In this document: positions 11,186 to 12,145 of the stretch, one piece after another
Layout of the letters: every line of letters begins with the position of its first letter
Position numbering within the stretch: position 1 is the stretch's first letter
The notes under the pieces: generated by a model
What the model was told of the DNA's origin: nothing
What the model saw: the letters and a program-made list of their open reading frames with translations, nothing else
Database searches by the model: none
Translations under genes and position numbers: made by a program
From: a phage
Strand: one strand, 5' to 3'
DNA: 64,000 nt
Sequence record: PZ583739.1

Positions 11186-12145
11186 TTATTTTGCGAAAGG
11201 ACGAATTAAATGTTGGTTAGCTTTAAAACGTTTAACATAGTCTTCGTGCCCCAGGGTGTTGTACATATTAACCACTTCCTGGTAATGTTCCCAGGCATAC
11301 TCACGGAACCATCCAGAAGTAATGGAGGTGCAGACTTTTTCCAGCGCAATATGGAAGCTCACGGATGGAGAGATATTGAACTCATTAGGAACCTGCGAAC
11401 GCTCCAGAGCGAGCACACATGCTTCTTCATAAACCCCTGCCAGTTTAATAACATCAGGGAGTGCTTCAAATTTTTCACGCGAGGTCATGACTTCTGAATC
11501 ATCCTTCATATAGAACTTATATGCAGGCTTATCAGCAAGCGCCACGGCCTCGTGGATGGAGTCATGGTCAAGGGTATAGATTGTATCATTAAAGAAAGTT
11601 TTCTTGCCCACGTCTAGTTTAGGGTGACTGTATGACAGTGTCTCTGCCTGACGCTGCAGCATGATTTTCTGCAGTTCATCATTAAGAACAATACCCTTAT
11701 TGCGAAGGTAATTAATATGACTCATGGTCTTCAGGAAGAATGGATTGTTCTTCAGGTAACGATGAGATAATTTAATTGCCAGACAAATATCAGGAGTTGC
11801 CCAGTAAAAACCTGTAAGACGATCTTTTTTAATATGATTTTCAGCATATTTCAGGAGACGATAACTTGAGGTGAAATCTTCGTCTTGAAGCTCACCAGTA
11901 ATTTCTCGTACGTTGGTCAGGGCACGGACAATATAAGCTTCAAAATAGGTTTCTTTGCCATTGTACATACATTTAAAAGCTTGGACGTTAGGGTTATCCA
12001 CAGGAACATGAGCACCGAACATACGTGCTTTAAAGTGGTTCCAGGAGCCTTGGTCAGCGATAAAGTCCCAATCAGAGTTTTCAATTTTCTGACTTTCAAT
12101 CAGACCAGCGTTATGTAATGCACGAGAACCAATAACTAACATCAT
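11186..12145 (-). CDS. hypothetical protein, possible Pol-beta-superfamily nucleotidyltransferase fold
   Basis: N-terminal VIGSRAL...x17...SDWDF resembles the hG[GS]...DhDh NTase motif; same conserved RBS cassette. Confidence 0.4.
   Translation of the reverse strand: MMLVIGSRALHNAGLIESQKIENSDWDFIADQGSWNHFKARMFGAHVPVDNPNVQAFKCMYNGKETYFEAYIVRALTNVREITGELQDEDFTSSYRLLKYAENHIKKDRLTGFYWATPDICLAIKLSHRYLKNNPFFLKTMSHINYLRNKGIVLNDELQKIMLQRQAETLSYSHPKLDVGKKTFFNDTIYTLDHDSIHEAVALADKPAYKFYMKDDSEVMTSREKFEALPDVIKLAGVYEEACVLALERSQVPNEFNISPSVSFHIALEKVCTSITSGWFREYAWEHYQEVVNMYNTLGHEDYVKRFKANQHLIRPFAK

Follow-up and report, generated by a model that had tools for sequence, protein, structure and literature searches.

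What does a predicted nucleotidyltransferase do beside a cluster of small genes that share a C-terminal tail? This question is raised by one locus in the phage sequence record PZ583739.1, of which a stretch of 64,000 nucleotides (nt), here called the window, was analysed. Its source is a T4-like coliphage with vB_EcoM_VR20 and TH41 as nearest relatives and EAWsc9, a Gaprivervirus, as the nearest one with a taxonomy line. A first-pass annotation had pointed to an open reading frame (ORF) of 319 amino acids (aa) at 11186-12145 with a possible nucleotidyltransferase (NTase) fold at its N-terminus; the ORF was confirmed, and its strand, left unstated there, is minus. Our analysis confidently predicts that the protein is a Pol-beta-fold NTase, finds it coupled to the small genes in many phage lineages, and tentatively suggests that it nucleotidylylates a serine in their tails. 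The enzyme gene and its parts are as follows.

11186..12145, minus strand: enzyme gene, 319 aa, predicted Pol-beta-fold NTase core plus family-specific helical domain (DUF7277 + DUF7275; phrog_2141)
11843..12145, minus strand: residues 1-101 (DUF7277), predicted NTase beta-sheet core, from the Pfam match, predicted strands and residue conservation
12125-12130, 12071-12073, 12065-12067 and 11939-11941, minus strand: codons of the catalytic residues G6-S7, D25, D27 and E69, respectively
11231..11788, minus strand: residues 120-305 (DUF7275), from the Pfam match

The gene runs from an ATG start to a TAA stop, and its N-terminus reads MMLVIGSRALHNAGLIESQKIENSDWDF, as had been quoted. The first-pass annotation recognised here an hG[GS]...DhDh signature with longer-than-usual spacing and a position unusually near the N-terminus, and each of these points holds: GS and D are separated by 17 residues that form a loop of variable length, and since strand beta1 already begins at residue 2, the motif is reached at residue 5. 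Strands are predicted at residues 2-5, 26-31, 45-47, 54-61 and 64-73 of the core; in the predicted structure I5-G6-S7 lies between strand 2-5 and helix 7-12, and D25-W-D27-F, at the start of strand 26-31, forms the [DE]h[DE]h metal-binding pair. G6, S7, D25 and D27 are kept in every alignable homologue drawn from independent contigs (82/82) and in 4/4 sequences of a deep branch of the family, so that the signature is a family feature rather than a chance match. A third catalytic acidic residue, which the annotation had proposed to seek on the following strand, was located as E69 in F68-E69-A70, inside predicted strand 64-73; this position holds E in 75 and D in 5 of the 82 homologues and is invariant in alignment A1. 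Judged from these sequences, the best explanation is a catalytically competent enzyme whose D25/D27/E69 triad stays intact under strict selection.

This assignment is further strengthened by the predicted model, which contains the beta-sheet core, resembles solved NTases in three dimensions and has MenT1 as its top structural match. About 145 residues superpose on MenT1/ANT(2''), including the first helices at 118-149 (K125, H128, R129, K139), and the modelled similarity to the MenT/AbiEii fold takes in the C-terminal helical subdomain of that fold. Residues ~150-305 are predicted to form an all-helical domain with no solved analogue, in which H194-D195-x-x-H198, E240-E241, E248-R249 and K270 are invariant. 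Fixed only in the clade linked to the tails are R129, R165, H174-P175, C272, S277 and R281, which are candidate determinants of tail recognition. Two other readings of this region were rejected: an HD domain, as the H...HD...D motif on an HD fold was not found and neither fold nor profile lent support, and a Cys243/Cys272 metal site, as C243 is replaced by Tyr in 12/83 enzymes.

The enzyme is a new family within this known fold. Pfam identified DUF7277 (aa 2-101; 92.8 bits, 2.3e-26) and DUF7275 (aa 120-305; 253.7 bits) against a cut-off of 27 for both, and phrog_2141 matched residues 1-319 at 3.2e-147. No curated NTase sequence family was matched in NCBIfam, in PADLOC, or in phmmer and profile searches of the PDB, and no NTP_transf_2 profile match was found among the enzyme members; when 70 members were searched against Pfam at E<=10, nothing appeared beyond DUF7277/DUF7275, save one member touching DUF6036 at 0.045, and PF08843 (AbiEii/DUF1814) matched none of them. 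The enzyme was found by tblastn in 732 phage records, and public records label the gene 'hypothetical protein', rarely 'nucleotidyltransferase'. An exhaustive profile search with the family returned 1,619 cluster representatives at 50% identity (E<=1e-3); the best 150 of them are mostly ~290-350 aa long and were matched almost full-length, which indicates a fixed architecture. Cellular genomes nearly lack the enzyme, with just five loci among the genomes of 185,579 species, all in metagenome bins.

Immediately upstream, past a single intervening 55-aa ORF, lie the small 'WVSSS-tail' genes (12430-13451), where the annotation had placed them. The array holds four genes.

13161..13451, minus strand: tail protein 1, 96 aa, ending GAWVSSSAMC (phrog_899, 5e-23; AlphaFold2 (AF2) model with a predicted local distance difference test score (pLDDT) of 88)
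12870..13151, minus strand: tail protein 2, 93 aa, ending GGWVSSSSEC (phrog_899, 9e-20)
12664..12876, minus strand: tail protein 3, 70 aa, ending TSWVSSSYEC (phrog_4882, 3e-36)
12430..12654, minus strand: tail protein 4, 74 aa, short-tail class, ending KIWHPSSC (phrog_899, 2e-9)

The tail proteins are small and acidic (median ~82 aa, isoelectric point 4.4) and end in W-x-x-S-S-x(0-3)-C-COOH. Across the family the W, the S at +3 and the terminal C are invariant and nothing else is, and the spacing from this Ser to the terminal Cys varies from i+2 to i+5. The AF2 model of tail protein 1 predicts a folded mini-domain with W89 in its last strand and the Ser...Cys end protruding. All six serine codons encode the invariant Ser (116 TCN, 63 AGY), and both Cys codons and all three stops are in use; selection thus acts on the tail as a peptide rather than on a signal in the RNA or DNA, and a nucleotide-level role as ribosome-binding site or terminator was rejected. 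One subfamily carries a second, internal copy of the motif followed by YGE (D-W-x-S-S-x-C-Y-G-E...W-x-x-S-S-C), as in the gene at 12430-12654 (DWLYSSCYGE), at 4413-4631 of locus L002 and at several other loci, which suggests an internal duplication of the tail-bearing segment. The tail partners contain no Rx4-6H motif and are not HEPN RNases. A profile of the family retrieved nine close relatives only from a collection of 5.8 billion proteins, because the proteins are short.

The association between enzyme and tails was investigated at 83 loci, including 80 IMG/VR loci at 39-99% identity to the target enzyme, by examining every stop codon in six frames. The tail is carried by 225 of the 26,404 ORF ends, 222 on the enzyme's strand and 3 on the opposite one, and nearly all same-strand tail ORFs end 12-3,200 nt upstream of the enzyme start. 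One to five tail ORFs end within 3.5 kb (<=3.5 kb) upstream of the enzyme in 74/83 loci. The nine exceptions comprise three artefacts of start-codon extension, in which an abutting tail ORF is present, one contig without upstream DNA, phage YB07, whose tail ORFs lie just downstream of the enzyme, three loci with the tail ORF on the opposite strand, and locus L029. Tail ORFs therefore stand near the enzyme in 81/82 assessable loci, spanning 19 enzyme lineages (clusters at 60% identity). L029, the sole assessable locus without one, encodes an enzyme that keeps all catalytic residues. At 9748-9987 of L029 a 79-aa ORF abuts the enzyme and ends in ...VCYSSSTF; it is possibly a decayed tail gene.

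Since the regular expression itself imposes part of the tail pattern, unbiased controls were made. ORFs ending in Cys account for 23.5% (242/1030) of those in the 3.5-kb upstream zone, compared with 1.7% outside this zone on the same strand and 3.2% on the opposite one. A hidden Markov model of the bodies only, with the tail removed, found 190 unique members, 186 of them ending in the tail (143/147 among non-training members). When the neighbourhoods were clustered, the tail family was the only one co-occurring with the enzyme across lineages, at 17/19, with the next best family at 5/19. Within the window, the 4 tail-bearing ends among 1,054 ORF ends all fall in the array, and in an independent genome collection tail ORFs were found upstream in 5/5 enzyme loci. 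Two unrelated phages, phAPEC8 and Pseudomonas SYP, also have 'WVSSS' counterparts directly upstream of the enzyme, and the first 100 kb of T4, the syntenic e-nudE-e.2 region included, contain neither enzyme nor tails. The T4 gene nrdC.11 with the mobD.x genes upstream was considered as the T4 version of the module and rejected, having no similarity to the target and no tails; nrdC.11 (L086 5435-6445; GSHLYG...SDVDF) is a different, unrelated putative NTase, with mobD.1-mobD.5 at L086 7283-8722. We consider it very likely that the enzyme and its small partners form one functional unit.

The deep branch of the family presents a second case of a dedicated partner. Distant homologues of the phrog_6944 type, at 28-34% identity, occur in Streptomyces, Gordonia, Roseobacter and Vibrio phages and share with the close clade GS...D.D, K125, H128, K139, H194-D195-x-x-H198, E240-E241, E248-R249 and K270. 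At the loci examined these phages lack W..SS..C tails, with the exception of L160. In 70/76 deep-branch loci the enzyme is followed by one to five copies of a different protein of ~110-145 aa, usually abutting or overlapping its stop codon, with the module F[RK]K.GYY.S[WY].G..WDG...EV.P....VT.YE (among loci L087-L160, for example L087 4630-4968 and 5011-5322, L088 4600-4890 and L090 4614-4979). The enzyme and its partner share a strand for 182/182 copies, and the 83 close-clade loci contain no copy. This partner matches no Pfam family and has no conserved Cys; its single invariant Ser is the sole invariant residue besides Met1. Two contigs encode in-frame fusions in which a complete enzyme carries the GYY.S[WY] module at its C-terminus (L147 3974-5200 and L153 261-1355). 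Homology between the two partner families was rejected at an hhalign probability of 0.3%; in the five aligned columns the invariant serines are in register with an aromatic residue at -3, an alignment that is not significant. The deep-branch locus L160 has no GYY.S[WY] partner, and a tail-type ORF at 3807-3983, ending ...YESSWQSSSC, abuts its enzyme start, which suggests partner swapping between the two branches.

Taken as a two-component module, the enzyme and its upstream array of small acidic proteins would work as follows. The helical domain would dock the tail, with the Trp and the terminal Cys or carboxylate as anchors, and the D25/D27/E69 metal site would transfer a nucleoside monophosphate (NMP) from a nucleoside triphosphate (NTP) to the hydroxyl group of the serine at W+3, which is invariant. 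The reaction would be protein O-nucleotidylylation, possibly extended to a short chain, and in this way, early in infection, one enzyme would modify a whole set of small phage proteins that is diversifying; the Cys or carboxylate may serve to anchor the docked tail, or there may be a second chemical step afterwards. We infer docking and NMP transfer from the predicted NTase fold, the intact triad and the coupling to proteins with an exposed serine, and it is in this sense that the tail would be recognised, that the serine would be the acceptor, and that a nucleotide and a biological consequence can be proposed. There is precedent in MntA, a minimal NTase that oligo-AMPylates its co-encoded partner HepT on Tyr (PMC7641770). 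We favour nucleotidylylation of the tail serine as a working reading, at somewhat less than an even chance. A broader form of it, which we consider rather unlikely, holds that a phage-private NTase marks the invariant tail serine of fast-diversifying small acidic effectors in virulent phages of many lineages; the target in the sister branch would then be the GYY-x-S-[WY] module, and the products would be protein-nucleotide or protein-oligonucleotide conjugates or, if elimination and addition of the Cys follow, a thioether-capped C-terminus, a chemistry so far not reported for phage proteins.

Several points weigh against serine nucleotidylylation. Simple modification of the serine does not explain why the terminal Cys is strict while its distance from the Ser varies, and conserved adjacency denotes a functional link without giving its direction. 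Moreover, the MenT toxins, which are the closest structural relatives, act on tRNA 3' ends and not on proteins (PMC10435456, PMC7450476), and the small partners of MenT enzymes are regulators rather than substrates (PMC11375011).

In the main alternative, the tail proteins are regulators, antitoxin-like inhibitors or adaptors, the constant tail is a docking peptide or pseudo-substrate, and the acceptor is RNA or tRNA 3' ends, as for MenT, or a host protein brought by the variable body. The small upstream antitoxin that controls MenT1, the top structural match, by inducing auto-phosphorylation (PMC11375011) speaks for such a role. The module departs from that model in having one to five paralogous partners per enzyme instead of a 1:1 pair, in lacking any Pfam AbiEii/DUF1814 match among the 70 members at E<=10, and in showing no conserved Ser/Thr before D25, where the preceding residues vary in the 70-sequence alignment. 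In addition, the near-sole invariant residue of both partner families is a hydroxyl-bearing Ser, as would be expected of an acceptor site, partner-enzyme fusions exist, no RNA ligase is among the families recurrent in the close clade, and an addiction module has no obvious role in virulent phages. We consider regulation or adaptation by the tails rather unlikely, though it is the strongest of the rivals.

A maturation resembling that of RiPPs, peptides that are made by the ribosome and modified post-translationally, is improbable. Here the nucleotidylylated serine would be converted to dehydroalanine and the terminal Cys thiol would add to it, closing a C-terminal thioether ring (lanthionine- or aminovinyl-cysteine (AviCys)-like) by a lyase or cyclase function of the helical domain. 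Such chemistry would account for an invariant Ser that is followed, 2-5 residues on, by a C-terminal Cys likewise invariant, for one enzyme serving several precursor-like genes, and for the second invariant polar cluster (H194-D195-x-x-H198, E240-E241, E248-R249, K270), which NTase chemistry leaves unexplained. However, that same cluster is retained in the deep branch, whose partner has the invariant Ser and no conserved Cys, and the ring size would have to range from i+2 to i+5. The substrates are folded ~80-aa proteins rather than leader-core peptides, no homology or fold match to a lanthipeptide dehydratase, lyase, cyclase or decarboxylase was found, and the Tyr at position 243 in 12/83 enzymes speaks against a Zn site built on Cys.

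A stand-alone NTase whose substrate is a small molecule, or which produces or degrades a signalling nucleotide as the first-pass annotation had proposed, with the tails nearby through a shared early-region location only, is very improbable given a linkage that persists in 17/19 lineages while all other neighbouring families change, its replication in the independent collection, a second partner family twice fused to the enzyme, and the lack of any PADLOC defence-model match, CD-NTase signal or cGAS/DncV-like fold of the CD-NTase/cGAS-like signalling enzymes.

The wider neighbourhood of the enzyme adds further observations. The local order is lysozyme e (8648-9142), nudE, an e.2-like membrane protein, a 228-aa ORF, the enzyme, the 55-aa ORF and the four small genes, and no terminator-like site was found on the minus strand between tail array and enzyme. 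A strong Shine-Dalgarno sequence, AATGAGGAAAATATT-ATG, precedes the enzyme gene. The identical 15-nt translation-initiation cassette AATGAGGAAAATATT stands directly 5' of the ATG in three consecutive genes, namely the 55-aa ORF, the enzyme and the 228-aa ORF (minus strand, 11127-11156, 12146-12175 and 12327-12356), and takes in the stop of the preceding gene in 2/3 cases. The gene directly downstream of the enzyme is the following.

10440-11126, minus strand: 228-aa protein of unknown function (phrog_1843)

This protein has no match in Pfam, NCBIfam or PADLOC; it contains HHDD...WHTG, resembling the HxD...H triad of 2-oxoglutarate-Fe(II) oxygenases, and one record names it 'phytanoyl-CoA dioxygenase'. 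It was rejected as a partner working with the enzyme, being absent from its side in phAPEC8, SYP and YB07 and not among the recurrent families. Four flanking minus-strand ORFs share a C-terminal motif F-I-x-E-[CV]-[RK], at 9853-10440 (...SFIEECRK), 13448-13894 (...TFIKECKS), 13788-14183 (...EFIKEVRNGTA) and 14122-14694 (...RFIAECREY...), with membrane-like hydrophobic segments in at least the first three; they may form a further family of paralogues with a C-terminal motif as its hallmark. Genes for tRNA-Arg(TCT) and tRNA-Met(CAT) lie at 18376-18528 (minus strand), ~6 kb upstream of the enzyme and on its strand, and YB07 and Gordonia phage Aphelion, too, have tRNA genes close to the enzyme, which bears only weakly on an RNA acceptor. 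Nicotinamide phosphoribosyltransferase genes are found a few kb from the enzyme in several unrelated phages (L004 376-1878; L089 7921-8549; L090 1508-3163), in 5/19 lineages, with a cytidylyltransferase/NMNAT-like or phosphoribosyl-pyrophosphate (PRPP)-synthetase gene close by.

In the literature searched, there was no description of DUF7275/DUF7277, of the tails, or of a phage NTase with such proteins as partners. With 1,619 clusters and 732 deposited genomes, the family is large, and it includes many coliphages of therapy and defence research, and two sets of unknown genes are now joined in a testable enzyme-substrate hypothesis with a fold, a catalytic site and a partner family. Should the tails prove to be nucleotidylylated, the module would be the first of its type encoded by phages and would define a new class of enzyme-matured phage effectors; it would also offer a way into the function of the diversifying small early proteins, which may plausibly act in host takeover or against host defences. 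Should they prove to be regulators of an RNA-modifying enzyme like MenT, viruses would be seen to control this toxin fold by a new logic. A further prospective use of the invariant eight-residue tail is as a portable sequence for enzymatic tagging.

Comparison with known systems places the module more precisely. Between the MenT/AbiEii (DUF1814) toxins (MenT1 8an4, MenT3/TglT 6j7n, MenT4 6y56) and the enzyme no sequence-profile relationship was found; the enzyme is phage-encoded and carries an extra helical domain of ~170 residues; the gene order is similar, with one to five W..S..C-COOH paralogues where MenT has one antitoxin. ANT(2'')-Ia (4xje) and LnuA (4wh5) share the shape of the core but are proteins of ~160-180 aa that have antibiotic substrates and no cognate protein partner. 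Multi-precursor RiPP systems, such as the prochlorosin-type lanthipeptides, likewise set several paralogous small genes beside a single modifying enzyme, with Ser and Cys in a conserved segment. In the phage proteins, unlike these, the C-terminal segment is constant, the N-terminal body is variable and the bodies are folded domains of ~80 aa. GlnD pairs an NTase with a second, helical catalytic domain. GlnD and GlnE resemble the proposal in that NTase-fold enzymes nucleotidylylate a hydroxyl side chain of a specific protein, PII and glutamine synthetase, respectively (in part, PMC12409994). They are, however, large cellular regulators that modify Tyr, and the phage helical domain has no recognisable HD domain. 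A further analogy may be offered by CitX/MdcG, putatively NTases, which attach a prosthetic group to a small acidic carrier protein at a Ser. The closest mechanistic precedent is MntA-HepT (MNT/HEPN, type VII toxin-antitoxin), in which the NTase modifies a hydroxyl side chain of its co-encoded partner (PMC7641770). MntA has a Tyr of a HEPN RNase as acceptor, whereas the phage partners are multi-copy and a near-C-terminal Ser is the proposed site. The enzyme-tail module would be a variant on the theme of an NTase acting on a cognate protein.
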